Assembly (NCBI GenBank): GCA_965649115.1
Contig: CBFGJN010000014.1
Location: 1-38,165, forward strand
Source of the DNA: a candidate division WOR-3 bacterium
Lineage (GTDB): Bacteria > Hydrothermota > Hydrothermia > LBFQ01 > DSFT01
DNA length: 38,165 nt
Reading direction: 5' to 3'
Made by a program: the position numbers and the translations under genes. Positions 24,791 to 37,899 of this stretch are shown here, in pieces. Within the stretch, counting starts at the first letter, position 1. Each line of letters begins with the position of its first letter. The notes beneath the pieces were generated by a model, which saw nothing but the letters and a program-made list of their open reading frames with translations, did no database searches and was not told the DNA's origin.

Positions 24791-26635
24791 ATGATAATTC
24801 TTCTAATTGGACAAATTCAAAACCCTGATTTTGAAAATTGGAGTTATATAACAAGAGATATTCCTTTTGCGTGGGATACAATAAAAAATACAAATGCTAA
24901 TTGTTTTTGGGAAAAAGATAATACAACTTATAGAATCGGAAGTTCTTCTATAAAAATTACAATAAATAATCCATCTATTAGCGGTTATTCGTGTGCTATT
25001 GGACAAGCAAAAGGTATAACACCCAACACTACTTATAATATATCTACTTGGATTTACGATAATGACCCTAATGTATATGCAAGATTATATGTTGCCTGTT
25101 ATGACAATAATCAAAATCAGGTTGATTGGAGTTTTATAGGTTCAAATTCAAGTGATAATCCATTTTGGCAGCAAATTTCAGGAACTTATACAACACCTGC
25201 TAATTGTAATTATATAGATATTCAAATAAGAACTTATGGAAATAGTGGAAGCATAAATGTAGATGGAGTTAGCTTAACAACAGGTAGCCCTCCATCTGAA
25301 TTAAATGAAAGTTTTAATAGTTATCCACCAAGTCAATGGATTGAAGTGGATTTAGGAAATTTATTACAAATGAGAGCAAGTGCTTGTCCATTTTCAAGTG
25401 ATAATAATTGCTTTGGAATAAAATTCAGACAACAAGACCAAGACTCATCAAAATCAGGATTATCTTATTTAATGACAGATACACTTGATTTCAGTTCAAT
25501 TCAACCTGAAACACTATTATTCTATTGGAGAGTAAATACTAATAGTCCTGCTCAAACTATACCCTCTACTGATTCTATTAAAGTTGAAATATCAACGGAT
25601 TTAGGTAATAGTTGGAATAGTTTGTGGAAATGGAATGGAAGTCTATTAACAACTGCTCAATTAGTTTCAATTCCACTTGATAGTTATAATGGACTTGAAC
25701 AAGTTTTAATTAGATTTTCATTTTATAAAAATTCAACAAGTGGAAGTTCAACAACATCAAATAGATATTTTAATGTAGATTCAGTTAAGGTTAAAAATTC
25801 TTATATTTCAAGATTTAACAGACTTACAAATAGCTCTTTTGAAACTTGGCTTTATACAACAAATGATATGTTTCCCAATTATTGGAGAAAGTGGAATAAT
25901 ACTGCACCAGAAGATAATGGAAGAACTGCTCAACTTTGGATAAAAAGAGACACATTTAGATATAGTGGAAATTACTCTTTAAGAGCATTCTTTACAACAA
26001 TTTTAAACCCATTTATTGAACAAAAATTTTCAAATCCATTTAACAATTGTTCAAATTATCCAATAAGTGAGGTTGATAGTTTTGTAGTTATTTCAAATGT
26101 AAGATTTTATGATAATGATACAAAAGCAAAAGCAAGAACAGGAATTGTATGGTACTATTTAAATAATACCCAATCAGATTATCCTAATAATTATACAACA
26201 AATCAAACAAATTGGCAATTATATCAAAATAATTCAAAATTCATAGGTCCTAAACTTGGTGGAAATAACTTTGATTCAATTGCTTTTAGAATAAGATTTT
26301 ATAATGAAGGTTCATTACCAAATGCGGAAGATGGTGGTTTAATTTATGTTGATAGTGTTAATTTTAAAATTTATTGTTATGTAGGAAATATAACACCTAT
26401 TGATGTTGTTGAATATCAATTTAACGAATTTATTAACTACATTAGGATAAATATAAATGGTGTTGAAATTTCAGCTAAAAAACCAATTAAAATTTCAATT
26501 TATTCAATAAATGGCACAAAAATTTATCAATCAGATATAGAAAATAAGAAATTTATAAACCTTAAAAAGGGTGTTTATGTTTTGCTAATATATAACCAAA
26601 ACAAAATGATATTAAAAAGGAGGTTGGTGATATGA
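24791..26635 (+). CDS. Secreted protein with CBM-like/jelly-roll domains and T9SS-like CTD
   Basis: Two NxxFExW...W carbohydrate-binding-like modules, a central adhesin-like module, C-terminal IYSING...LKKGVY and a strong SD. Confidence 0.75.
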   Translation: MIILLIGQIQNPDFENWSYITRDIPFAWDTIKNTNANCFWEKDNTTYRIGSSSIKITINNPSISGYSCAIGQAKGITPNTTYNISTWIYDNDPNVYARLYVACYDNNQNQVDWSFIGSNSSDNPFWQQISGTYTTPANCNYIDIQIRTYGNSGSINVDGVSLTTGSPPSELNESFNSYPPSQWIEVDLGNLLQMRASACPFSSDNNCFGIKFRQQDQDSSKSGLSYLMTDTLDFSSIQPETLLFYWRVNTNSPAQTIPSTDSIKVEISTDLGNSWNSLWKWNGSLLTTAQLVSIPLDSYNGLEQVLIRFSFYKNSTSGSSTTSNRYFNVDSVKVKNSYISRFNRLTNSSFETWLYTTNDMFPNYWRKWNNTAPEDNGRTAQLWIKRDTFRYSGNYSLRAFFTTILNPFIEQKFSNPFNNCSNYPISEVDSFVVISNVRFYDNDTKAKARTGIVWYYLNNTQSDYPNNYTTNQTNWQLYQNNSKFIGPKLGGNNFDSIAFRIRFYNEGSLPNAEDGGLIYVDSVNFKIYCYVGNITPIDVVEYQFNEFINYIRININGVEISAKKPIKISIYSINGTKIYQSDIENKKFINLKKGVYVLLIYNQNKMILKRRLVI

Positions 26636-27402
26636 TGCTCTTTATAATATCACAAATTTTCTATGAAGGTTTTGAAGGGACTCAATTTCCACCCAGTGGA
26701 TGGACAAATACGGGAACAAGGAACTTCAAATGGGTAAGAAGGACAAGTGGTGTGGTTTTTGGAACTGCTTCCGCTGGTGTTTCAGTTGCTCAAACTTCAA
26801 GAGACAGTGGAACTGCAATTCTTCAAACACCACTTATAAACCTTCCATCAATAAACCCAAATGATACAATAATTTTCTCATTTTATTATAAACTTCCATC
26901 TGTTGGAGGTGCTTTTGATACAAGATTTAGATCAACAGATACCTTAAAAGTTCAAATATCAAATGATGGCAATAATTGGACAAATTTAATTGTTTGGGAT
27001 TCAACAAGTTTATATACAGGAGCAAATAATCAACCAAAAAAAGTTCAATTTAATATATCCTCCTATCAAAATACAAATATCTATATTAGATGGATTTTTA
27101 TAGATAAAACTTATGATACAGTTAATTACAATTCATATTTCAATATAGATTCGGTTTTTGTAGGTGTGAAAACTACTAAATCCCTTGAAAGTAAAAATAA
27201 TTTTATAAAAATTATGAAAAACACAATAGAAATAAATCCAACTGAAAAACCATTAAAATTAGAAATATATTCGCCAGATGGCAAAATCATTTATTCCACC
27301 TATACTAATCAGAAGAAATTATTATCTTTAAGGAAAGGGATATATTTCATTATTGTTTATGATAATAAGAAAGTTGTTTTAAGAAAGAAAATTGGTTTAT
27401 GA
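26632..27402 (+). CDS. Cleaved-adhesin/choice-of-anchor J-like protein with T9SS-like CTD
   Basis: FYEGFEG..FPPSGWT, LQTP.I.L, L.VQIS.DG.NW, IYIRW; C-terminus IYSPDGK...LRKGIYF. Confidence 0.72.
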   Translation: MMLFIISQIFYEGFEGTQFPPSGWTNTGTRNFKWVRRTSGVVFGTASAGVSVAQTSRDSGTAILQTPLINLPSINPNDTIIFSFYYKLPSVGGAFDTRFRSTDTLKVQISNDGNNWTNLIVWDSTSLYTGANNQPKKVQFNISSYQNTNIYIRWIFIDKTYDTVNYNSYFNIDSVFVGVKTTKSLESKNNFIKIMKNTIEINPTEKPLKLEIYSPDGKIIYSTYTNQKKLLSLRKGIYFIIVYDNKKVVLRKKIGL

Positions 27403-28589
27403 TAATTGAAGTTTATTTTAGTGGGGGCTTTATGCCCCCTGAAAGTGTAATAATAAATGCAATAAATAATGCTCAAAAAACCATAGATGTTAGTATATAT
27501 AGTTTTTGGGGAAGTCCAACAGCTGATAACATAAAAAATGCTCTAATAAATGCTAAAAACAGAAATGTAAGAATAAGAGTAATAGCAGAAAATAATACTT
27601 CAAATCCAAATTCCCAAAGTTATCCTTATATATTGTCTTTAATAAATAATAACATTCCGGTTCTTTTTGATAGTTTATCTTCTATCGGTTATGGATGTCC
27701 AAATAATAGTGGTTATCTAAATCATCAAAAATTTATAGTTATTGATAGTCAAATTGTTTTAGTTGGTTCATTTAACTTAACTTATAATGCATTAAACATA
27801 GATGCTAATGATTTATTAAAAATTAATGATAGAAATTTAGCTATTAGATTTATAAAACAATTTGAAATGATGTGGGGAAGTAATGGAAATCTTCCAAATT
27901 TATCAAATTGTAAATTTCAAAATTATAAATATGACTTAATGGAACATACATTTTATTATAATAACCAAATTTTAGATTCAATAAAGATTTTTTTCTCTCC
28001 AAAAGATGGAACATATAATGTTATTTCAAATCTCATTCATAATTCACAAGGTTCAATATATTTAGCTATGAATAAATTTACTTTATGTGATTATAGAGAT
28101 TCATTATTTCCAAAGAAAAATTACACTTTCATTTTAGTTGATAATGGCACATGGAATGATAAACCCGTTTTGAATATAAGAGGACAAAATATAACGCCTG
28201 ATGCTTATTGCCAAAATAAACCTTGGAATCCTCCCGGAAATATATTAAAAGATAATATCCCAAATAATGGTATTCTTCATTATAAATTTGCCATTTTTGA
28301 TAAATATATTGTTCTTACAGGTTCAATGAATTGGACATATAGTGGAGCAAATTACAACGATGAAGTTATTATAATCATATATTCTAAATTTTTAGCTAAT
28401 GCTTATTTTGATGAATTTAATAAAAGATGGATACAAGCGGGAGGCTCTTCTAATAAGAATGAAAATATTACTTTTAATGATAATGAAGTGGAAATTTATA
28501 GTATTGATGGTAAGTTAGTTAAAAAGCTTAAAAAAGGTGTTTATATTATCAGATTTAAAAATGGAAGTTATAAGGTTATTGTAAATTAA
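27399..28589 (+). CDS. Phospholipase D/nuclease family protein with T9SS-like CTD
   Basis: Two HKD motifs (HQKFIVID...GSFN and HYKFAIFD...GSMN); C-terminus IYSIDGKLV..LKKGVY. Confidence 0.85.
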   Translation: MIIEVYFSGGFMPPESVIINAINNAQKTIDVSIYSFWGSPTADNIKNALINAKNRNVRIRVIAENNTSNPNSQSYPYILSLINNNIPVLFDSLSSIGYGCPNNSGYLNHQKFIVIDSQIVLVGSFNLTYNALNIDANDLLKINDRNLAIRFIKQFEMMWGSNGNLPNLSNCKFQNYKYDLMEHTFYYNNQILDSIKIFFSPKDGTYNVISNLIHNSQGSIYLAMNKFTLCDYRDSLFPKKNYTFILVDNGTWNDKPVLNIRGQNITPDAYCQNKPWNPPGNILKDNIPNNGILHYKFAIFDKYIVLTGSMNWTYSGANYNDEVIIIIYSKFLANAYFDEFNKRWIQAGGSSNKNENITFNDNEVEIYSIDGKLVKKLKKGVYIIRFKNGSYKVIVN

Positions 28590-28590
28590 A

Positions 28591-28992
28591 ATGGCTATGA
28601 AAAAGCGTGTAATTTTTATATGTACCCATAACTCGGCAAGGTCAATAATGTGCGAAGCAATTTTAAAACATTTATATGGAGATTATTATGAGGTTTATTC
28701 TGCTGGAACTAATCCAACAGGTATAAAAGAATTTACAAAAGTGGTTTTGAAAGAAATAGGAATAGATATTTCTGATTTATATTCTAAAAGTATTGATGAA
28801 TTTCATAGAAAAAAATTTGATTTTGTTATAACTGTTTGTGATAGTGCTAAGGAAACTTGTCCATTCCTTCCAGTTGGAAAAAATTATATTCACAAAAGTT
28901 TTAAAGACCCTTTAACTCTTGAAGATTTTAGGGAAGTTAGAGATGAGATTTATGAATGGATTAAGGAATTTTTTAAGGTAGAGGGGGCTTAA
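28591..28992 (+). CDS. arsC: ArsC-like arsenate reductase (LMW-PTP fold)
   Basis: CTHNSARS P-loop, SAGT, ITVCDSAKETCP and DP. Confidence 0.82.
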   Translation: MAMKKRVIFICTHNSARSIMCEAILKHLYGDYYEVYSAGTNPTGIKEFTKVVLKEIGIDISDLYSKSIDEFHRKKFDFVITVCDSAKETCPFLPVGKNYIHKSFKDPLTLEDFREVRDEIYEWIKEFFKVEGA

Positions 28993-29252: not shown

Positions 29253-31499
29253 CTACCTTAACATTCTTCTACCTGTACTTTCAATTTCAGTTTCTCTCTT
29301 AGAAGGAGGTTTAAATTGCTTACTAAAATTATATTGTAAAACAAAATTTAAATTTACACGTTCAAAATTATTGTACTTATAGGTAGAGTAATTATTTCCT
29401 TTGATATTTATTTCATACTTATAAATTCTAAAAGGGTCTTGTGCCATAAGGATTAATGAAAAGTTTTTTAATTGTGTCATAAAAGCTATTTCGCTATACA
29501 TTTGAGGTCCATATGTTCCCCAAACTGCCTCTTGAGGAGAAACATAATCAAATCTTGCTTGTATAAATCCTAAAAGAGCAAAAATTGTTAATGATAATGA
29601 GCTACCATATTCACTTGAATTTATATTACTATAAGAATATCTTCTGTAATATGGACTTAAAGCAAGGTTCAACTTTCCATTAAATAAATTAGCTTCAATA
29701 CCTATTGAAGTTCCATAATCATAACCTTTTCCTGCATTTATAAATCTTTTCAAATTAGTCTTGCTTGTACTATCATATGGATATTCCTCTATGTCTATAA
29801 TATTTTCTCTTAATGATGTGTAAATTTCAGGATTTAATGATATATTCCCTAATAATAAATTAGCTCCAAATTCAAGAGCATTTGAATATTCTGGAAGAAC
29901 ATTTATATTACCTTCAACTATTTCAGTTCTCGATTCAATACTTTTCACAGGTAAAAACATAGTTTCATTTGGTCTAAAAATACGACGAGATAAACCAAAA
30001 TAAAAACTATTATTACCATATGGTAAGGATAGGTTAAGTGTTGGGAAAAGAGATAAATATCTAATTTCTATGGGTTGATTTTGTGTGCTAACATTGAAAA
30101 TTCGGTTTATATACTCTAAGCGAAGACCAATTTTATAATTTACATTTCTAAAACTTGAAGACAAAGTGCTATAAAATGCATGAACTTGGTCATTACCTTC
30201 ATAAGTATAGTTTGGAATTTGCGGGAAGTAAGATAAGTTTCTTTCAAATTCGTTTTGAGATTTAGAAGAGAAGATTGATAATTTATAACCTGTATTTAGT
30301 TCAAAATTTCCAAAATTAGTTATATATTTAATCTCACCATATCCATAACCTTGATTGAAGTTTCCAATTGAACGAATATATCCATCAGAAGCACTATCAG
30401 AAGTATTTAGATTTCTTGGAAAATAATAACTATAAAATGTAAGTGAAACTTTATTATTTTCATCAATTTTTCTATCATAACCAAGAAGAAAATTACCCAT
30501 CAAGTAAGATGATTGAAAGTTATTTATAACATTAAAATTATTGTCATTTAAAGTATAAATGTACGAAGAAATAGGTTTGAGATTTTTATAAGTTCCTCCT
30601 AATTCAAATGTAATCTCATCACTTTGAGATGGCAAAAACTTAAAACCTATATTAGTCATTCCTATAATTGCTTGATTCTTAGAGTATCCATTTATAATAA
30701 CACTATCACTTTGAAAAACATATTTACCATAAAGCATCATTTTTAAAATTTGTCTTGTCAATTGTAGTCTTATATATGGTTGAAATTTGCCTGTATTTAA
30801 GCCTATAAGGGCGTTTATATCACCACCAAGATAGGAGTTCAAAGTTCCTTGCAAATTTATACCATATCCACTTTCCTTCCTGCGTTTTAATATAACATTT
30901 ATTATAGCATTTCCTTCTGCATCGTATTCAGCACTTGGATTTGTAATAACTTCTATTCTCTCTATTTGAGATGCTGGTATATCTTTAAGAGTTAGATTTG
31001 TAGGACGTCCATCAACAAGCAAAAGGTACTTATTACTACCTCTAACTTTAACATTACCTTGGGGGTCAACTTCAACGCCTGGAACACCTTTTAAAACATC
31101 AGAGGCACTTCCAGCCTTACCTACAATATCAGCATTTGGTTGAACAACTTTCTTATCCAACTCGTAGCGCACTTTTGAAGGCTTAGCTTCAACTACTACT
31201 TCCTTTGTGGTTATAGGTTTAGGAGATAAAATTATATCCCCTAAATTTGTATCAGCTTTTATTACAAGAGGTCCAATAACCTTCTTCTGATAACCTATGA
31301 ATTCCACAGATAATAGGTATTCGCCAGGTTTGATATCCTTTATTGTGAAGATGCCATCTTCATTAGTATAAGTTCCTCCAATTTGTGAAGAATCTGGAAG
31401 CTTTTGAACAATAACCACTGCATAGGCCATAGGCTTAGCGCTTTCTTCATCAACAACCTTTCCAGAAATTGTCAAACTTATTAGAATCGTCAATGCCAT
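29253..31499 (-). CDS. TonB-dependent receptor-like outer-membrane beta-barrel in the lanthipeptide cluster
   Basis: Carboxypeptidase-regulatory-like N-terminus, plug LKGVPGVEVD...IERIEVITNPSAEYDAEG and barrel motifs LFPTLNL and GN..V.PEYS. Confidence 0.85.
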   Translation of the reverse strand: MALTILISLTISGKVVDEESAKPMAYAVVIVQKLPDSSQIGGTYTNEDGIFTIKDIKPGEYLLSVEFIGYQKKVIGPLVIKADTNLGDIILSPKPITTKEVVVEAKPSKVRYELDKKVVQPNADIVGKAGSASDVLKGVPGVEVDPQGNVKVRGSNKYLLLVDGRPTNLTLKDIPASQIERIEVITNPSAEYDAEGNAIINVILKRRKESGYGINLQGTLNSYLGGDINALIGLNTGKFQPYIRLQLTRQILKMMLYGKYVFQSDSVIINGYSKNQAIIGMTNIGFKFLPSQSDEITFELGGTYKNLKPISSYIYTLNDNNFNVINNFQSSYLMGNFLLGYDRKIDENNKVSLTFYSYYFPRNLNTSDSASDGYIRSIGNFNQGYGYGEIKYITNFGNFELNTGYKLSIFSSKSQNEFERNLSYFPQIPNYTYEGNDQVHAFYSTLSSSFRNVNYKIGLRLEYINRIFNVSTQNQPIEIRYLSLFPTLNLSLPYGNNSFYFGLSRRIFRPNETMFLPVKSIESRTEIVEGNINVLPEYSNALEFGANLLLGNISLNPEIYTSLRENIIDIEEYPYDSTSKTNLKRFINAGKGYDYGTSIGIEANLFNGKLNLALSPYYRRYSYSNINSSEYGSSLSLTIFALLGFIQARFDYVSPQEAVWGTYGPQMYSEIAFMTQLKNFSLILMAQDPFRIYKYEINIKGNNYSTYKYNNFERVNLNFVLQYNFSKQFKPPSKRETEIESTGRRMLR

Positions 31500-31534: not shown

Positions 31535-33073
31535 TCAAGTTAAATTCCATAACTTTCCTTCTTTTATTTCAAAAATTTTATCAAAATCTTTAAATAAACT
31601 TTCATAACTGTGAGTCACTACAATAATTGTTTTCTCTCTTAAAAGGGATAAAATTTTATTAGCAACTTTTGGAACGCTTTCCTTATCAATATTTTCAAAA
31701 GGTTCGTCAAAAATGTAGCAATCAGCTGGTTTTGAGAGTGTTAAAGCAATAGAAAATTTCTTATATTGACCAGCAGATAATTGTGAAGGTTTTCTATCCG
31801 TAGGCAATTCAAAATACTTTAAAAGTTCTAATAAAACCTCCTTGTTAAAAATTTCAATAATATTCAGATATTCAAAGATGGGAATGTCTGGTATATATTT
31901 AGGCAATAGAGATATATCATTAAATGTAATAACTTCACCATGCTTAGGCTCTAATAAACCTGCAATTATTTTAAGTAAAGTGCTTTTACCTGAACCATTT
32001 GGACCTACTATTAAAATTTTTTCTCCTTTGTAAATTTCTAAATTTATTCCTTTAATTATTTCTTGGGAATCATAAGAGAAATAAACATTTTTCAAAATTA
32101 TTAAATTCCCTCTTTTTACTCCATCTGTTTTGGAAATTTCCAAAACTTCATCAATCCTTCTTAATTGAGAAAATCTACTTATTGCCTCTGAAACTGAATC
32201 GAAAATTACACCAAGAGAAGAATAAAAAGGATAATATGCAGAGAAGAAACCAAAGAAATCACCAGCTGTTATCTTTCCAATAAACAAGAGGTAAATGTTT
32301 ATGCCAATAAAAGTTATTTGAACAATAACATTAGCAATTCTACTTAAAAGTTCATAGTTTTGGTTAATTTTTGTGAATTTATATAAGGTATTTAAAAATT
32401 CAGAGGCATACAAAAGAATATGATAAGTAATAAACTTAATGAGATTAAATATGTTTATAAATTCAAAGGATTTTAATGCATCAGCTAAAACTCCCCTAAG
32501 TTGTGCCTCCGTTTCCATCCTTTTTACTGACAAACTGGCAACTTTATTTTGAAAGCTTAATGTTATAACGAAGGATATTATAAGCATAGGAATAATTACA
32601 ATTGTTGAAATTGGTGATAGAATAATCATAGCTATTAAACGGGATATTAAGCTCATAATAGAGCTTGAAATTGTAAAAATCAATGATAATATAGATATTA
32701 TAATCTCTTGTGGCTCTTCATATATACGACTTAAATAATAACCTGTGTCCCTTTTAGAAACTTCCAAGTATGGCAAGCGATAATAATATGGTAGTAATTT
32801 TTCTAAAATATAAAACCTAATTTTGTTTTCAAATTTAGTTCTAAAAAGCATATAAAAATATTCTACTATTAATACAAAAAATCCCAAAATAACAAATATA
32901 GAGAAAAATACTAAAAATTTATAAAAATTCTTCTCCTGTAATGCAATATCAAAAAGGTACTTTTGAATGATAGGCTCAAAAAAGCCAATTGTTGGAAATA
33001 ATATAACTAATAGGAAGAGAATAAAAAGTATAGATAAAATAAATTTTTTAATAACTTCCTTTAAAAGTCCCAT
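31535..33073 (-). CDS. ABC exporter (fused permease/ATPase), LanT-like without a peptidase domain
   Basis: TM domain plus GPNGSGKST, LSAGQ, DEP and VTH. Overlaps the lanKC 3' end. Confidence 0.9.
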   Translation of the reverse strand: MGLLKEVIKKFILSILFILFLLVILFPTIGFFEPIIQKYLFDIALQEKNFYKFLVFFSIFVILGFFVLIVEYFYMLFRTKFENKIRFYILEKLLPYYYRLPYLEVSKRDTGYYLSRIYEEPQEIIISILSLIFTISSSIMSLISRLIAMIILSPISTIVIIPMLIISFVITLSFQNKVASLSVKRMETEAQLRGVLADALKSFEFINIFNLIKFITYHILLYASEFLNTLYKFTKINQNYELLSRIANVIVQITFIGINIYLLFIGKITAGDFFGFFSAYYPFYSSLGVIFDSVSEAISRFSQLRRIDEVLEISKTDGVKRGNLIILKNVYFSYDSQEIIKGINLEIYKGEKILIVGPNGSGKSTLLKIIAGLLEPKHGEVITFNDISLLPKYIPDIPIFEYLNIIEIFNKEVLLELLKYFELPTDRKPSQLSAGQYKKFSIALTLSKPADCYIFDEPFENIDKESVPKVANKILSLLREKTIIVVTHSYESLFKDFDKIFEIKEGKLWNLT

Positions 33074-35583
33074 AGTGTTCGTGATTCTCTTCTATCCTTA
33101 AATCTAAGTAGGAAATCCAATACACCAGCAGAACCTGTACCCCAATCGTCTGTAAAATCTTGATAATTATCCGTAGGATATAATATTTCCCCATTTTCAC
33201 TTTCAAAAGCAAACAACCTTAATCCATCCAATACCTTACTTATTCTTGTTCTCTTTCCAAGAAATAGTTCAACATCTAAAAGACTTTCGCCTAATCCTGC
33301 TAACCCCAAAAGTTGCCCACTAAAAATTGTAAATTTTCTCTCTAAATCGGGTAAAGCCCTGTTTATATAATCCAAAATCCAATTTTCTTTAAATATCTTA
33401 TATAATCTAACTAAAACCCCTACAACCCCAGCACTACCATATTCAACATATGGTAATAGCGTAGTGCGACCCTCTTCACTTGGCCAGCTTAGGTATCCAT
33501 TTACTTCTCTTCCTGCTTTTAAAGTGTGTTTTAGGAACTTAAAGGATGCTTCTTTTACCCTTTCATCTCTAACAATTTCGTACAATTTTCCAAGAAATAG
33601 AGATATACCTGCTCCACCATGACCATAACCAAACTTTATTGAACCATCAAATGAAGGCAAGAAAAGCGTACCATTATCTTCCTTAGCATTTCTCAAAAGC
33701 CATTCATAACATTTCATAGCCTCTTTAAGAAAAATTTCTTCTTTTGTCCCATAATAAAACTTTAAGTTAGTAAATCCATATCCAGCGACACCGTAGAATA
33801 TACCTCCATCCCCGTAAATTAATTTATGTTCCCAAGCCTTTTTTAGAATACTTATTGACTCCTCAAACATTCCCATGTCCCACAAAGTCCAAGCCAATCC
33901 ACATAAACCAACATACAAACCTGGCGGTGTCTCATCCTTCTCAAGTTTCAAAATCATATCAAGCCAATCTTTTGGGGGTGAAATATTTAAGCGTTTGAGA
34001 ACATAGTAAATACCTGTATAACCATAAGCAAATCCAAAAGGAACTAAACCATTCAAATCAGCATAAATTTTAAGATTGTTATTTTTTAATCGTTTAATTA
34101 GTCCGCTTATCAAATTATTAATCTCAATATCAATTTTGGGTTTTCTTGGTCTTTTTAAAACTTTGGCAGTCCCTATTATACGCTTAACTAAAATAGTTGG
34201 TTTATTACGAACATTTGGATTATTAGACAAATTTTTTTTGACAATCTCCTTTATAGTCTTAGGCAATTTATATTCGTAAAGTAAGTTTTCAAAAAATTGG
34301 TCCCAAAGTTTTGGTGCCAAATGGAATAGATGATTATTTGTAAAAAGAAGTGAATGAATGATCATTGCAAAGGCATAATAATCGTCTTCGTATCTCGGTT
34401 TTTCACCTTTGACAACTTGTGGGGAAGCCATGCCAGGTGTGAAAACATTGTAATAATTATCACTTCCTATAATATAAGCTCCTTCAAAGTCTATAAACTT
34501 AACTTTAAGCGTTTGCAGGTTCAAAAGGATATTATTGGGTGATATATCAACTACCACTATTTTATTAGAATGAAATGTTTCTAAGGCTATTGCAATGTTT
34601 TCAATTATTTTCAAAAACTTATTAAGCCATTCCTCTCTATCCTTATCAGTAGCATTCGTATTTAAAACTGGAGCATATAAAGCCACAAAAGAGCGCAAAT
34701 CTATACCATCAACAAATTCTTCAACCAAAAACCAATGCTCCCATTCTTGAAATAGTTCATAAGGTTTTGGAACTATATCCGTATCTTTCATTCTATTTAA
34801 AATTTCATATTCTTTTTTAAGAAGCATCACAGCATCTGTTCCTTTTTCGTCCATACTTACATATGGTCTTGCCTCTTTTATAACAACCCTGTTTCCACCA
34901 ATTATATCCAAAGCCTCATATACTCCACCATTATTTGAGAATTGTATTGCAGATATAACTTTGTATTTCCCTTTTAGAATAATCTCACGAGGTGGCTTTA
35001 TAGGTTCGTTTCCAAATGGGTCCTCAACCCATGGTGGAATGGAATAATATGGAAGGCGAATGTCATCATAAGGTTTACCATCAGGTGTTAATATAATTGG
35101 AACTTTTGTTCCATCTACTTTTATTCTTTCCCTTAAAACAAATCCTCCATATCTATAATATAACACCCTACAATCCTTGTATCTCATATCAGAAAGAATA
35201 TATGGTCCAACCATATCTTTCAAATTCTCATAAAGTCTTTCCAATAATTCTTTAAATGTTTTATCATCAGGAGGATAAATAGTTATAAATTTACCACTTC
35301 CACCCCTCTGGAATATACGAGAATTACGAAGAGCTAATGTTGATTTATCCTTTAAGAACTTGAAATTTACGCTAAAAGAACATATAATTGGAACCGAAAT
35401 ACGAAGTATCTCCTCTGCATTTAAGACTGTTGCACTTATATGGATTTTCCAACCCTGCTCTGGAAAGTTGTTTTCTTCACTATAACAAAAAATCCAATCA
35501 TTTATAGGACTTAACTTCCAATCTTTCGGAATAATATTTTTAACTAATTCAATAAAATCGTCTACTTCTTCTTTACGAAACAT
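33061..35583 (-). CDS. lanKC: Class III lanthipeptide synthetase (lyase-kinase-cyclase)
   Basis: Lyase QGWKIHIS, SGKFITIYP, GPYILSD, YYRYGGF. Kinase GGVY, VVIKEARP, DISPNN, IDFE. The cyclase lacks Zn ligands (PYVEYGSAG, GQLLGLAG). Confidence 0.93.
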   Translation of the reverse strand: MFRKEEVDDFIELVKNIIPKDWKLSPINDWIFCYSEENNFPEQGWKIHISATVLNAEEILRISVPIICSFSVNFKFLKDKSTLALRNSRIFQRGGSGKFITIYPPDDKTFKELLERLYENLKDMVGPYILSDMRYKDCRVLYYRYGGFVLRERIKVDGTKVPIILTPDGKPYDDIRLPYYSIPPWVEDPFGNEPIKPPREIILKGKYKVISAIQFSNNGGVYEALDIIGGNRVVIKEARPYVSMDEKGTDAVMLLKKEYEILNRMKDTDIVPKPYELFQEWEHWFLVEEFVDGIDLRSFVALYAPVLNTNATDKDREEWLNKFLKIIENIAIALETFHSNKIVVVDISPNNILLNLQTLKVKFIDFEGAYIIGSDNYYNVFTPGMASPQVVKGEKPRYEDDYYAFAMIIHSLLFTNNHLFHLAPKLWDQFFENLLYEYKLPKTIKEIVKKNLSNNPNVRNKPTILVKRIIGTAKVLKRPRKPKIDIEINNLISGLIKRLKNNNLKIYADLNGLVPFGFAYGYTGIYYVLKRLNISPPKDWLDMILKLEKDETPPGLYVGLCGLAWTLWDMGMFEESISILKKAWEHKLIYGDGGIFYGVAGYGFTNLKFYYGTKEEIFLKEAMKCYEWLLRNAKEDNGTLFLPSFDGSIKFGYGHGGAGISLFLGKLYEIVRDERVKEASFKFLKHTLKAGREVNGYLSWPSEEGRTTLLPYVEYGSAGVVGVLVRLYKIFKENWILDYINRALPDLERKFTIFSGQLLGLAGLGESLLDVELFLGKRTRISKVLDGLRLFAFESENGEILYPTDNYQDFTDDWGTGSAGVLDFLLRFKDRRESRTLWDF

Positions 35584-35756
35584 TCAAGACTTAGGGAAGA
35601 TTTAAGGTTTAATCTTCCACGCTTTTTCTTTCCACAACCCGTTCCAAATATGCTTATAGTTGAACAAAAAGAAGCACTCATAGTACTTGTATTATTGCTT
35701 TTTCCATTTTTATCTCCACCTTCAATTAAAGCTTGTAAAGAAAGTACCAAAAACAT
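35562..35756 (-). CDS. Class III lanthipeptide precursor A2 (64 aa, three SxxSx(n)C motifs)
   Basis: Leader VLSLQAL; cores STMSASFC, STISIFGTGC and SSLSLEC; SD AAGGAG. Confidence 0.88.
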   Translation of the reverse strand: MFLVLSLQALIEGGDKNGKSNNTSTMSASFCSTISIFGTGCGKKKRGRLNLKSSLSLECFVKKK

Positions 35757-35794
35757 CCTTTAAACTCCTTTTTTATAAATTTTATTATTTATAA

Positions 35795-35816
35795 TGTGGG
35801 GCATATCCACCCCACA
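35795..35816 (-). promoter_or_regulatory. Stem-loop between the two precursor genes
   Basis: TGTGGGG-N8-CCCCACA about 10 nt after the A1 stop, with only a weak U tract. Confidence 0.55.
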
Positions 35817-35825
35817 ACTTAGGCC

Positions 35826-35954
35826 TCATAGACAAATGAGACTTAGACTTGAACAAAAGGAGTAGCTTGCACTGCTAGGAGCAGGGGGTTTGTTTAGATT
35901 CAACCCATCATCCCCATTTGCCTTTAGTGTTTGTAATGCCAAAACACTACTCAT
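35826..35954 (-). CDS. Class III lanthipeptide precursor A1 (42 aa)
   Basis: Manual translation MSSVLALQTLKANGDDGLNLNKPPAPSSASYSFCSSLSLICL*, with SD AAGGAGG. Not in the ORF track. Confidence 0.9.
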   Translation of the reverse strand: MSSVLALQTLKANGDDGLNLNKPPAPSSASYSFCSSLSLICL

Positions 35955-35969
35955 CTTTTAACCTCCTTT

Positions 35970-36527
35970 TCAACTCGTAATTATTATAATACACTCACAA
36001 TAAGTAAAGTTCTGCGTTATTATACAATTACATATAGCTATAACTCTATTTAACTCTTTTGTATATTTCTTTGAAATCTCAGATAATTTTGATATTGTGC
36101 TTTTAAGTGAAGAACTATCATATATCTTGCTTTCAAGGACAGCTAATTTTTCACTTACAAAAACATCTTTACTTATTGATTTGAGTTCCTTTTCAAAGCT
36201 TTTTACATCCTTTATATTTTCTTTGGGTTTTATAATAATTTCTTCAATTTCTGTAAAGTCGGACTTAAAAAGTTCTTCCAAACCCTTTAAATCATTTATA
36301 TTATATTCTCTAACTATCTGAACTTTTGAAACATTTGAAGTTTGAGTAATTTTCTTTAGAATTTCTTCTATATTACCTGTATCAGAAAGAATTATTGTAA
36401 ATTGTGAAGGCTGAGATTGAAGCTGAGAAAGAATTTGAGAAAGATTTTGAAAATTACCCTCAATTATAAATGTCTTTCTTTGAACTTTCAAAGTATCATC
36501 TAACAAAAATAAAATTAAACTTATCAT
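35970..36527 (-). CDS. Hypothetical exported protein
   Basis: 185-aa ORF with a short hydrophobic N-terminus and two CxC near the C-terminus, tightly packed in the operon. Confidence 0.6.
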   Translation of the reverse strand: MISLILFLLDDTLKVQRKTFIIEGNFQNLSQILSQLQSQPSQFTIILSDTGNIEEILKKITQTSNVSKVQIVREYNINDLKGLEELFKSDFTEIEEIIIKPKENIKDVKSFEKELKSISKDVFVSEKLAVLESKIYDSSSLKSTISKLSEISKKYTKELNRVIAICNCIITQNFTYCECIIIITS

Positions 36528-36542
36528 AATTATAACCTACTT

Positions 36543-37052
36543 TTAAGGTAATTTACAGCAAACACCACATGTGCTACAACCCATACATTCACCCCCACCA
36601 GGACAACAAACAGTTCTATCACTACAAACACAACAACCTGGCAAAACACTCATAATAGTATCTTTTACTGATAAACTATATGAACCAATTTTGATTTGAT
36701 GTAAGTTATTAAAATTTAAGGAAGCTTCTGAGATAGACGCTTTCTCATTCCATAAGCTCTTTATCATATCACAAGATAATTTATTCAAGTTAGAAATGTC
36801 AGATTTTTGAAAAAGCTTAAATTTAATCTCCTTATTTTCTATTTTGGAAAGTAGAATTTCATTGTTTAAATAAATAAGCGAAACAACGCCTTCACTTATA
36901 GCCATTTTCTTATCATTTACCTCTATCCAAAAAAGTTTCTGAAGCTTTGGTTTTGGAAAATTTTGATTTATCTCATCAGACGGTTCGGTTGATTTTTTAG
37001 AACAAGAAATTAGAGCAAGCACTATGAATATACTAGGTATAATATTTTTCAT
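36543..37052 (-). CDS. Lipoprotein with 10-Cys C-terminal domain
   Basis: Lipobox LALISC, SD AAGGAGG and tail CCVCSDRTVCCPGGGECMGCSTCGVCC. Confidence 0.75.
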   Translation of the reverse strand: MKNIIPSIFIVLALISCSKKSTEPSDEINQNFPKPKLQKLFWIEVNDKKMAISEGVVSLIYLNNEILLSKIENKEIKFKLFQKSDISNLNKLSCDMIKSLWNEKASISEASLNFNNLHQIKIGSYSLSVKDTIMSVLPGCCVCSDRTVCCPGGGECMGCSTCGVCCKLP

Positions 37053-37209: not shown

Positions 37210-37809
37210 TTAGTAAATTATTAGCTTCTTAAAATTACCATTTTCGGTCTTTATCAAATAAACACCATTTTTTAGCTTTAAGGTTTTTAGATTTTCAGTT
37301 TTTCCCTTAAATAAAACCTTTCCTGATAAGTCGTATAGTATAACTTCACTATTTGATAACTTTTCAACTTCAGGTTTGGCAAGAAATGAACGAGAATTAT
37401 CTTTTGTCTTTAAAATAGCCCAACAAGTTCCATCAGAATTGCATTTACAGAATATACCACTACAAGTTGATTTTTCACACTGGCAAGTCGCCTTATCCTG
37501 CTTATTAGGCGATATTACAAAAGCCAAAAATGGAACACATTTGGAGAGAATTAAACCTTTTATATTTTCAAGTTCATTGCTTATTTTTTCTAAGTTAGCT
37601 ATATTAGACTGAATATAATTCTCTATAAAGGAGGTATCTTTAAGCATCACATTTTCATCTATTTCCTTAATCATAAGCTCTAAATATGAATTTAATTTAT
37701 CAAGTGTTTCATTAGAAGGACAGGTATTGGAGGTTTGAATTTCATCCTTCAAGTTCAAAAGCTTATAATATATATCTTCCAAAGATGTTATTATAATGAG
37801 GTTTAACAT
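37210..37809 (-). CDS. Secreted protein with Cys-rich module and T9SS-like CTD, inside the 23S-5S spacer
   Basis: SD AAGGAGG plus ATG 37809 (MLNLIIITS), CQCEKSTCSGIFCKCNSDGTC and C-terminus LYDLSGK...LKNGVYL...KKLII. Confidence 0.8.
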   Translation of the reverse strand: MLNLIIITSLEDIYYKLLNLKDEIQTSNTCPSNETLDKLNSYLELMIKEIDENVMLKDTSFIENYIQSNIANLEKISNELENIKGLILSKCVPFLAFVISPNKQDKATCQCEKSTCSGIFCKCNSDGTCWAILKTKDNSRSFLAKPEVEKLSNSEVILYDLSGKVLFKGKTENLKTLKLKNGVYLIKTENGNFKKLIIY

Positions 37810-37899
37810 AGTTTTACCTCCTTTTTTCAAGTTCAAAAGCTTATAATATATATCTTCCAGATGTTATTATAATGAGATTTAACATAGTTTTACCTCCTT
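37748..37899. repeat. Tandem direct duplication of RBS plus gene start (76/74 bp)
   Basis: 37748-37823 and 37826-37899 differ by a 2-bp deletion and one substitution. Confidence 0.9.

Follow-up and report, generated by a model that had tools for sequence, protein, structure and literature searches.

What is a 64-residue peptide with three potential thioether ring motifs doing immediately upstream of a lanthionine synthetase gene, and does it give rise to one product or to several? The question is raised by a short gene, called A2 here, on the minus strand of a 38,165-nucleotide (nt) contig of a candidate division WOR-3 bacterium (CBFGJN010000014.1, assembly GCA_965649115.1; 'the window' below means this whole stretch). 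The genome that holds the window, G000, has a size of 1.85 Mb and a GC content of 29%. The original prediction, made from the letters alone, described A2 as an atypical cationic precursor with three ring motifs, and proposed that it was either one half of a two-component product or a multi-core precursor cut at its basic linker. Our data support the description and speak against both proposals. We regard it as highly probable that A2 is a genuine class III lanthipeptide precursor with three motifs under selection; that its product is a single tricyclic, mostly cationic class III lanthipeptide is a reading to which we assign, for the whole chain of inference, a probability of about 0.6. The anatomy of the gene is as follows.

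35562..35756, minus strand: A2 precursor open reading frame (ORF), 64 amino acids (aa), leader residues 1-23, core residues 24-64; translation MFLVLSLQALIEGGDKNGKSNNTSTMSASFCSTISIFGTGCGKKKRGRLNLKSSLSLECFVKKK
35756-35754 and 35564-35562, minus strand: ATG start codon and stop codon of A2
35765..35770, minus strand: ribosome-binding site AAGGAG, 8 nt 5' of the A2 ATG
35733..35747, minus strand: leader recognition motif V-L-S-L-Q, residues 4-8, ILELQ-like
35664..35687, minus strand: ring motif 1, S24-TM-S27-ASF-C31 (Sx2Sx3C)
35634..35663, minus strand: ring motif 2, S32-TI-S35-IFGTG-C41 (Sx2Sx5C), abutting motif 1
35604..35633, minus strand: polybasic linker GKKKRGRLNL, residues 42-51, with Lys or Arg at 5 of 10 positions
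35580..35603, minus strand: ring motif 3, K52-S53-S-L-S56-LE-C59 (Sx2Sx2C), preceded by the invariant Lys K52
35565..35579, minus strand: cationic tail FVKKK, inside the overlap with the start of the synthetase gene LanKC

The three putative ring motifs (S24/S27/C31, S32/S35/C41 and S53/S56/C59), the linker GKKKRGRLNL(K) before the third of them and the KKK tail are thus all present in the A2 translation, as had been predicted. Each motif conforms to the Sx2Sx2-5C pattern by which class III cores are defined (PMC8341899), with Ser-to-Cys spacings of x3, x5 and x2. The hydrophobic residues of the ILELQ-like leader motif are essential for processing by LabKC, and its acidic third residue, the position occupied by Ser in the VLSLQ of A2, is dispensable in LabA2 (PMC8341899). 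The last 22 nt of A2 overlap the LanKC ATG (35583) in a different frame, a feature that the original prediction did not mention, and the AAAAAAGGAG...ATG layout upstream of A2 is also kept in a genome of the same genus, G002, and in metagenome copies. Gene anatomy, homologues and the adjacent LanKC together support the assignment of A2 as a class III precursor with three ring motifs. A chance ORF is ruled out by the genome-wide rarity of the motifs, by the conservation of residues and by the synonymous codon turnover described below: among all 7,601 genomic ORFs with a length of 30-120 aa, A2 is the sole one with three Ser-only Sx2Sx2-5C motifs on distinct Cys residues and 14 others, one of them the upstream neighbour A1, carry two, and shuffled A2 residues reach three motifs in 42 of 200,000 trials.

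Conservation was counted in an alignment of nine family members. Residues M1, L5, S6, L7 and Q8 of the leader and S24, S27, C31, S32 and S35 of the first two motifs are invariant (9/9), and the longest invariant block (K52, S53, S54, L55, S56 and C59, again 9/9) lies in the third motif. The sole departures there are R for K and A for L in the relative P0008, which reads RSSASIKC. The Ser-to-Cys spacing of motif 2 ranges from 2 to 5 residues across lineages, and the C-terminal tail after motif 3 is not conserved (KL, G, R, CGND and others). The codons of the third motif differ from lineage to lineage, with TCT, TCC, AGT or TCA for S53, TCC, TCG, TCT or TCA for S54, CTA, CTT or TTA for L55 and AGT or AGC for S56, switches between TCN and AGY included. 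Such synonymous turnover at invariant residues indicates that selection acts on the peptide. Conservation of the third motif does not result from constraint on the LanKC reading frame, since the A2 genes of G042, G048 and G052 do not overlap LanKC and since the overlapped LanKC N-terminus in G002 is unlike that of the window. Homologues that stop after the second Cys had been named as the result that would speak against a third ring; the homologues found continue past it, and KSSLSxxC is invariant in all nine aligned sequences.

The enzyme family and the composition of the cluster point in the same direction. A2 is followed on the minus strand by three large genes.

33061..35583, minus strand: class III lanthionine synthetase LanKC, 840 aa, with lyase, kinase and cyclase domains
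31535..33073, minus strand: ATP-binding cassette (ABC) exporter, 512 aa, Pfam ABC_membrane and ABC_tran, without a peptidase domain
29253..31499, minus strand: TonB-dependent-receptor-like outer-membrane barrel, 748 aa, with CarboxypepD_reg, Plug and OMP_b-brl_3 domains

LanKC shows the Pfam domains RamC_N (5e-60, lyase), Pkinase (5e-19) and LANC_like (6e-16). It passes the cut-off of the NCBIfam model lanthi_synth_III (647.4 bits, cut-off 575) and fails that of lanthi_synth_IV (478.2 bits, cut-off 650), and the solved structures closest to it are those of class III LanKCs (top 8sao, E 6e-75). Full-length matches (E 1e-118 or better) occur in 9 of the 60 other genomes searched; the best match among named genome records (L056) is 51% identical in its best aligned segment. 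A quick maximum-likelihood tree with a midpoint root was built from 26 LanKCs, namely 10 from the class, three from metagenome loci with G002-like LanKC and 13 outgroups picked by hand from 113 loci (15 had been picked, and two with ORFs of less than 700 aa were left out). In this tree the nine LanKCs of A2-type lineages, that of metagenome locus L027 included, form one clade with a support of 100 in the Shimodaira-Hasegawa-like approximate likelihood ratio test (SH-aLRT), and those of G012, G013, G016 and G036 fall outside it. An ABC exporter without a peptidase domain follows LanKC in G000, G002, G011, G042, G048 and G052; the one in the window covers only positions 152-667 of the model for peptidase-containing ABC transporters. 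A barrel with CarboxypepD_reg and OMP_b-brl_3 or TonB_dep_Rec domains is present in G000, G002, G042, G048, G052 and G058, and those of G000 and G042 share 30% identity from end to end (E 2e-71). In G011 a 659-aa protein with a weak DUF5916 match takes its place. The conserved cluster thus comprises the precursor, LanKC, the ABC exporter and the TonB-receptor-like barrel.

Two LanKC loci deserve a separate remark. The only in-frame LanKC start in G002 is an ATG within the linker codons of A2 (L004 1240-1292), so that the two genes overlap by 53 nt there against 22 nt in the window, and the overlapped LanKC N-termini are unlike. L027, with a LanKC (at 2340) inside the A2-type clade, lacks a visible precursor in the 2.3 kb upstream of that gene, where an ORF of 345 aa lies on the opposite strand instead (1056-2093, minus).

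How widely is this architecture distributed? A word-indexed search of 5.8 billion proteins returned a single relative, P0002, of 62 aa, 87% identical and with all three motifs. When 1.84 billion representatives were searched exhaustively with a profile, nine matches at E 0.001 or better came up: six short three-motif peptides, one A1-type peptide and two long repetitive proteins, P0009 (1,068 aa) and P0011 (691 aa), matched in 10 and 7 short stretches and not counted. Within the class, strong full-length matches to the family profile occur in 7 of 64 genomes (G000, G002, G011, G042, G048, G052 and G058, all species genomes), and the same seven are the only ones among 272 genomes of the phylum. 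Weaker genome matches (E 0.001-0.1) have stops inside or lack the leader and were left out of the counts. Gene order varies: G002, with a LanKC of 54% identity, carries both an A1-type gene and a three-motif A2-type gene, ordered as in the window; in G042 and G048 A1 precedes LanKC and the three-motif gene follows the ABC gene; in G052 the three-motif gene, again behind the ABC gene, is the only one of the two; and in G011 it lies about 2 kb upstream of LanKC. In G012, G013, G016 and G036 LanKC is accompanied by unrelated short precursors. Eight of the nine metagenome loci with G002-like LanKC show a three-motif gene or the third motif, L029, which ends at a contig edge, being counted among them; L027, where no precursor was seen, is the sole exception. 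Three proteobacterial loci of the 113-locus scan (L110, L125 and L130) were rejected as three-motif kin, having overlapping CC-type motifs, short cores and no spaced architecture. The A2-type family is therefore real but small, and we lean towards seeing in A2 the precursor that marks this class III lanthipeptide family, whose inheritance would be vertical.

Some of these genomes show further particularities. The contig of G058 (L158, G058:C71, 5700-6200) is collinear with G042 (L154, G042:C78, 2156-2357 and 7039-7326) until a 647-aa gene ends, and resumes in the final ~40 nt of the ABC gene; this deletion of ~4.7 kb removed A1, LanKC and nearly all of the ABC gene and kept the barrel and an intact A2, one residue different from that of G042. 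No full-length LanKC was found elsewhere in this genome, which is 89% complete. In G011 a second, different precursor (…SSQSFFACSSCSFNNCC…) stands directly before the three-motif gene (L138/L157, G011:C38; ~1301-1746 of L138). G012 carries a tandem array of three unrelated short precursors ending ...SS..CC... (L010 4028-4407), and G016 has three precursor copies with a long common upstream repeat, ...GEGEGRRGTKEGNMKKVL(K/R)LQKV... (L011 4457-5300).

Gene anatomy, the enzyme family, the cluster composition, and conservation with purifying selection on all three motifs carry the proposed explanation; ring formation, ring type, ring order, the lack of cleavage and the activity of the product are what we infer from them and from established class III biochemistry. 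The VLSLQ leader would dock on the adjacent LanKC, which would phosphorylate and then eliminate the motif serines and close three thioether ring systems of the lanthionine or labionin type. Two of these would sit side by side in a hydrophobic block at the N-terminal end (S24/S27/C31 and S32/S35/C41), and the third (S53/S56/C59) would be set apart at the C-terminus on a flexible, usually cationic tether. By analogy with stackepeptin, the C-terminal ring is probably formed first: there it is a prerequisite for further processing (PMC8341899), which may explain why the C-terminal motif of A2 is so strictly conserved. The co-encoded ABC transporter would export the product, unlinked peptidases would trim the leader, and the conserved outer-membrane barrel would see to its passage or uptake at the outer membrane. 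The expected mature product is one uncleaved tricyclic peptide of ~41 residues with a net charge of about +8, amphipathic and membrane- or envelope-active.

Several points weigh against this scheme. Under the curated precursor models A2 stays below threshold: NCBIfam lanthi_III_b covers residues 4-37 with an E-value of 8e-4 and 19.4 bits (cut-off 30), and there is no match to a Pfam family. Since these models are unmatched, A2 counts as a separate precursor family and does not belong to lanthi_III_a, lanthi_III_b or RamS. The core of G011 is near-neutral (+1), with a 33-residue linker that contains an extra Cys, so that 'cationic' does not hold for every member, the net charge being +8 for G000 and between +5 and +8 for 8 of the 9 members. 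G058 retains A2 and the barrel without A1, LanKC and the ABC exporter, which means that the cell tolerates unmodified A2 or perhaps puts it to an independent use. The third motif lies 45 residues from the leader motif, and a reach of LanKC over this distance is presumed. TonB-receptor-like barrels with a plug are known as importers, not exporters; the barrel of the cluster is of this importer type, and its place is the least understood part of the scheme. Finally, no sequencing run on record as RNA contains the A2 locus. Two runs guessed to be 'RNA?' hold short identical contigs (one of 257 nt, 35527-35783) and, the label being a guess, are uninformative on expression. The window stretch is present in sequencing runs labelled as hot-spring metagenomes; the four runs aligned to the locus contain no variant letters, hence no population-level ratio of nonsynonymous to synonymous substitution rates could be obtained.

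The two proposals of the original prediction, and with them the relationship of A2 to its upstream neighbour, have to be weighed against this single tricyclic product. The elements concerned are the following.

35826..35954, minus strand: A1, 42-aa two-motif paralogue with a VLALQ leader and the motifs SSASYSFC and SSLSLIC, 70 nt upstream of A2
35795..35816, minus strand: GC-rich hairpin between A1 and A2, with a 9-bp stem and without a T-run

It had been suggested that the third motif of A2 parallels the last motif of A1 and that A2 is A1 with an inserted ring and linker. The likeness of the amino acids stands (SSLSLIC and SSLSLEC), but at the DNA level motif 2 of A1 is collinear with motif 2 of A2, not with the third. 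The idea of an insertion is better reversed, as the A2-type gene is the constant member and A1 the facultative one, and A1 aligns as an A2 cut after ring 2. This collinearity, the short basic stub in which the G042 A1 ends after ring 2 (...STLSIGCGRGRGK) and the shared leader in G002 give A1 the look of an A2 copy that was cut short behind ring 2. In G002 one and the same stretch of 5' region, ribosome-binding site and the first ~13 codons stands at the head of both genes (L004/L153 860-915 and 1070-1125), which argues for tandem duplication or gene conversion between them. We therefore favour, on these alignments, the view that A1 is an accessory paralogue without the tether and the third ring. 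A pair in which a hydrophobic two-ring A1 and a cationic three-ring A2 are both made by the single LanKC and act together would account for the co-occurrence of the two gene types in G000, G002, G042 and G048 (two families of the class and two gene orders) and in the metagenome loci L024 and L025, as well as for the second precursor beside A2 in G011, and the hairpin found after A1 in both G000 and G002 suggests separately tuned transcript levels. However, several clusters have A2 but lack A1, which is thus no obligate partner: within the available DNA, G052, the G058 contig and five G002-like metagenome loci (L023, L026, L028, L030 and L031) showed no A1-type gene. The identical 5' regions and leaders of G002 point to recent duplication or conversion and not to an old specialised pair. 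The two-component lanthipeptide families described in a mining study belong to class II (PMC7268733), and no class III two-component system is evident in the titles and abstract beginnings that a search for one listed. We consider such a pair unlikely.

Cleavage in the basic linker would yield two peptides, one bicyclic and A1-like, the other small, monocyclic and C-terminal. The N-terminal two-ring block of A2 does resemble A1, the linkers of 7 of the 9 aligned members are rich in Lys and Arg (most have 4-7 such residues in 9-14), and motif multiplication has been likened to cyanobactin cassettes (PMC8341899). Against this, the length of the linker varies from 5 residues (GKWNL in P0010) to 33 (G011), with 10 in G000, and so does its charge, GKWNL, GKSKEGFNL in P0008 and NGKDGIRGHVNL in P0006 being weakly basic; only N-L-K/R immediately before the third ring is conserved. 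The ORFs of the clusters of G000, G002, G011, G042, G048 and G052 contain no peptidase domain, the exporters included. A variable linker and a cluster without a protease leave no conserved polybasic cleavage site, and the linker, judged by its residues, looks like a flexible tether rather than a protease site. Moreover, the modules are mutually unlike and lack repeated flanking recognition sites, neither the conserved flanking sites nor the dedicated protease of cassette-type peptides that are made by the ribosome and modified post-translationally (RiPPs) are found in the A2 clusters examined, and a cut after K52 would be expected from lanthipeptide chemistry to leave an N-terminal dehydro-residue. 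A multi-core A2 cut at the linker hence appears distinctly improbable. It is also conceivable, if very improbable, that only motifs 1 and 2 are cyclised and that the C-terminal K-S-S-L-S-x-x-C is a recognition tag, of the follower type for LanKC or for the barrel. The block is conserved beyond the needs of ring chemistry, Lys and Leu included, the gene next downstream of A2 is that of the barrel in G042, G048, G052 and G058, and in G058 the pair has outlasted the loss of LanKC; nevertheless, the block has the exact Sx2Sx2C geometry of class III with an invariant Cys, and the second motifs of A1-type peptides share this geometry with similar residues (SSLSLIC, STLSWHC and STLSIGC). A related speculation, which we hold to be doubtful, keeps the ring and makes the tethered C-terminal element (N-L-K-S-S-L-S-x-x-C) the ligand of the co-inherited barrel, in a peptide-receptor pair rather than a plain antibiotic. 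Were it true, the peptide would be a secreted signal or carrier that is taken back up, or would be exported through the plug-containing barrel, and G058, with A2 and the barrel only, would be a listener or a cheater or would use the unmodified peptide.

A single tricyclic lanthipeptide thus remains the preferred reading of A2, and it is best compared with known class III systems. Their characterised cores have two adjacent motifs, the three-motif stackepeptin (StaA/StaKC; Jungmann et al. 2016, via the review PMC8341899), described as a case of 'motif multiplication', being the exception (PMC8341899). StaA and A2 are both LanKC substrates with a third Sx2Sx2-5C iteration. The motifs of StaA are contiguous (core Cys10, Cys19 and Cys30; PMC8341899), whereas the third motif of A2 is spaced by 5-33 residues; the stackepeptin producer is an actinomycete and that of A2 belongs to a diderm hot-spring lineage with a barrel in the cluster, the comparison being one of described architecture. 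Because the motifs are not contiguous, we file the A2 family as a spaced variant of motif multiplication and not as a member. With the labyrinthopeptins (LabA2-LabKC) A2 shares an ILELQ-type leader, a pair of neighbouring Sx2Sx3C-type motifs and one LanKC that unites lyase, kinase and cyclase domains, but these have two motifs only, without a cationic tether or a third ring, and the ring type in A2 may be labionin or lanthionine. The likeness to SapB/RamS is confined to A1, which has a weak RamS match and, like SapB, a hydrophobic two-ring core; A2 is without a Pfam match, strongly cationic and three-motif, and the host is no sporulating actinomycete. In detail, A1 stays below the thresholds of Pfam RamS (E 0.0063, 17.4 bits against 24.3) and NCBIfam lanthi_III_a/b. 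Lichenicidin, haloduracin and roseocin resemble the G000 cluster in the co-encoding of two dissimilar precursors, but they are class II systems of the LanM type (PMC7268733), whereas here one LanKC would serve both and A1 is dispensable in several relatives. Andalusicin, from Firmicutes (PMC8169954), is likewise a class III, non-actinomycete lanthipeptide with proposed antibacterial action; it belongs to another precursor family, and the A2 cluster has no methyltransferase or other tailoring gene.

Class III lanthipeptides have been reported mainly from Actinobacteria and Firmicutes (PMC7268733). The literature contains co-mentions of WOR-3 and lanthipeptides; no paper was found that links lanthipeptides to Hydrothermae, Hydrothermia, Hydrothermota or Caldifarciminota, and searches on tricyclic or three-ring class III peptides and on LanKC in hot-spring metagenome-assembled genomes showed nothing similar, judged by titles and abstract beginnings. 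By every feature tested except a match to a curated precursor model, the A2 system is, as far as sequence can tell, a class III lanthipeptide system. What sets the family apart is a conserved architecture with three predicted rings, one of them kept at a distance by a cationic tether, and its setting: the lineage is uncultured, thermophilic and diderm, and a dedicated outer-membrane barrel goes with the precursor. As a precursor family it is, in our view, clearly new, of predicted unusual architecture and with an unusual cluster partner, but of a RiPP class that is well known. Should the prediction of the product hold, it would offer a test case for the reach of LanKC from the leader and for ring order, a thermostable polycationic labionin or lanthionine scaffold, and a first handle on the passage of a class III lanthipeptide across a diderm outer membrane.

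Leader trimming by unlinked peptidases is usual in class III clusters without a protease (PMC8341899). The genome holds two Peptidase_M1 and two Peptidase_S9 genes on other contigs; such genes are housekeeping, being found in 8 and 13 of 14 control genomes, and were not accepted as evidence for leader trimming, so they are candidates only. P0008 has a polybasic run in its leader (DEKKKARKGKNKK), not in its linker.

The hairpin between A1 and A2 may set the ratio of A1 to A2-LanKC transcript. The stretch 35757-35830 folds with -17.7 kcal/mol (z -2.33; 2 of 200 shuffles equal it), and the G/C hairpin in the same place after A1 of G002 (L153 1045-1064) is weaker (z -1.32). The terminator scan did not call it, since the T-run is absent. 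A promoter scan found 16 promoter-like sites against 8.7 expected, none of them convincingly placed for A2. The ORFs 35970-36527 and 36543-37052 upstream of A1 have no Pfam or NCBIfam match and were not taken as parts of the cluster; the former has no similarity to the ORF upstream of A1 in G002. A phospholipase of the phospholipase D (PLD) type and a low-molecular-weight phosphatase are encoded at 27399-28992. Three ORFs of the window (24791-27402 and 37210-37836) carry type IX secretion C-terminal sorting tails (Por_Secre_tail), one of them passing the NCBIfam cut-off and the rest sub-threshold, which fits a diderm of a kind like the FCB group (Fibrobacteres-Chlorobi-Bacteroidetes).

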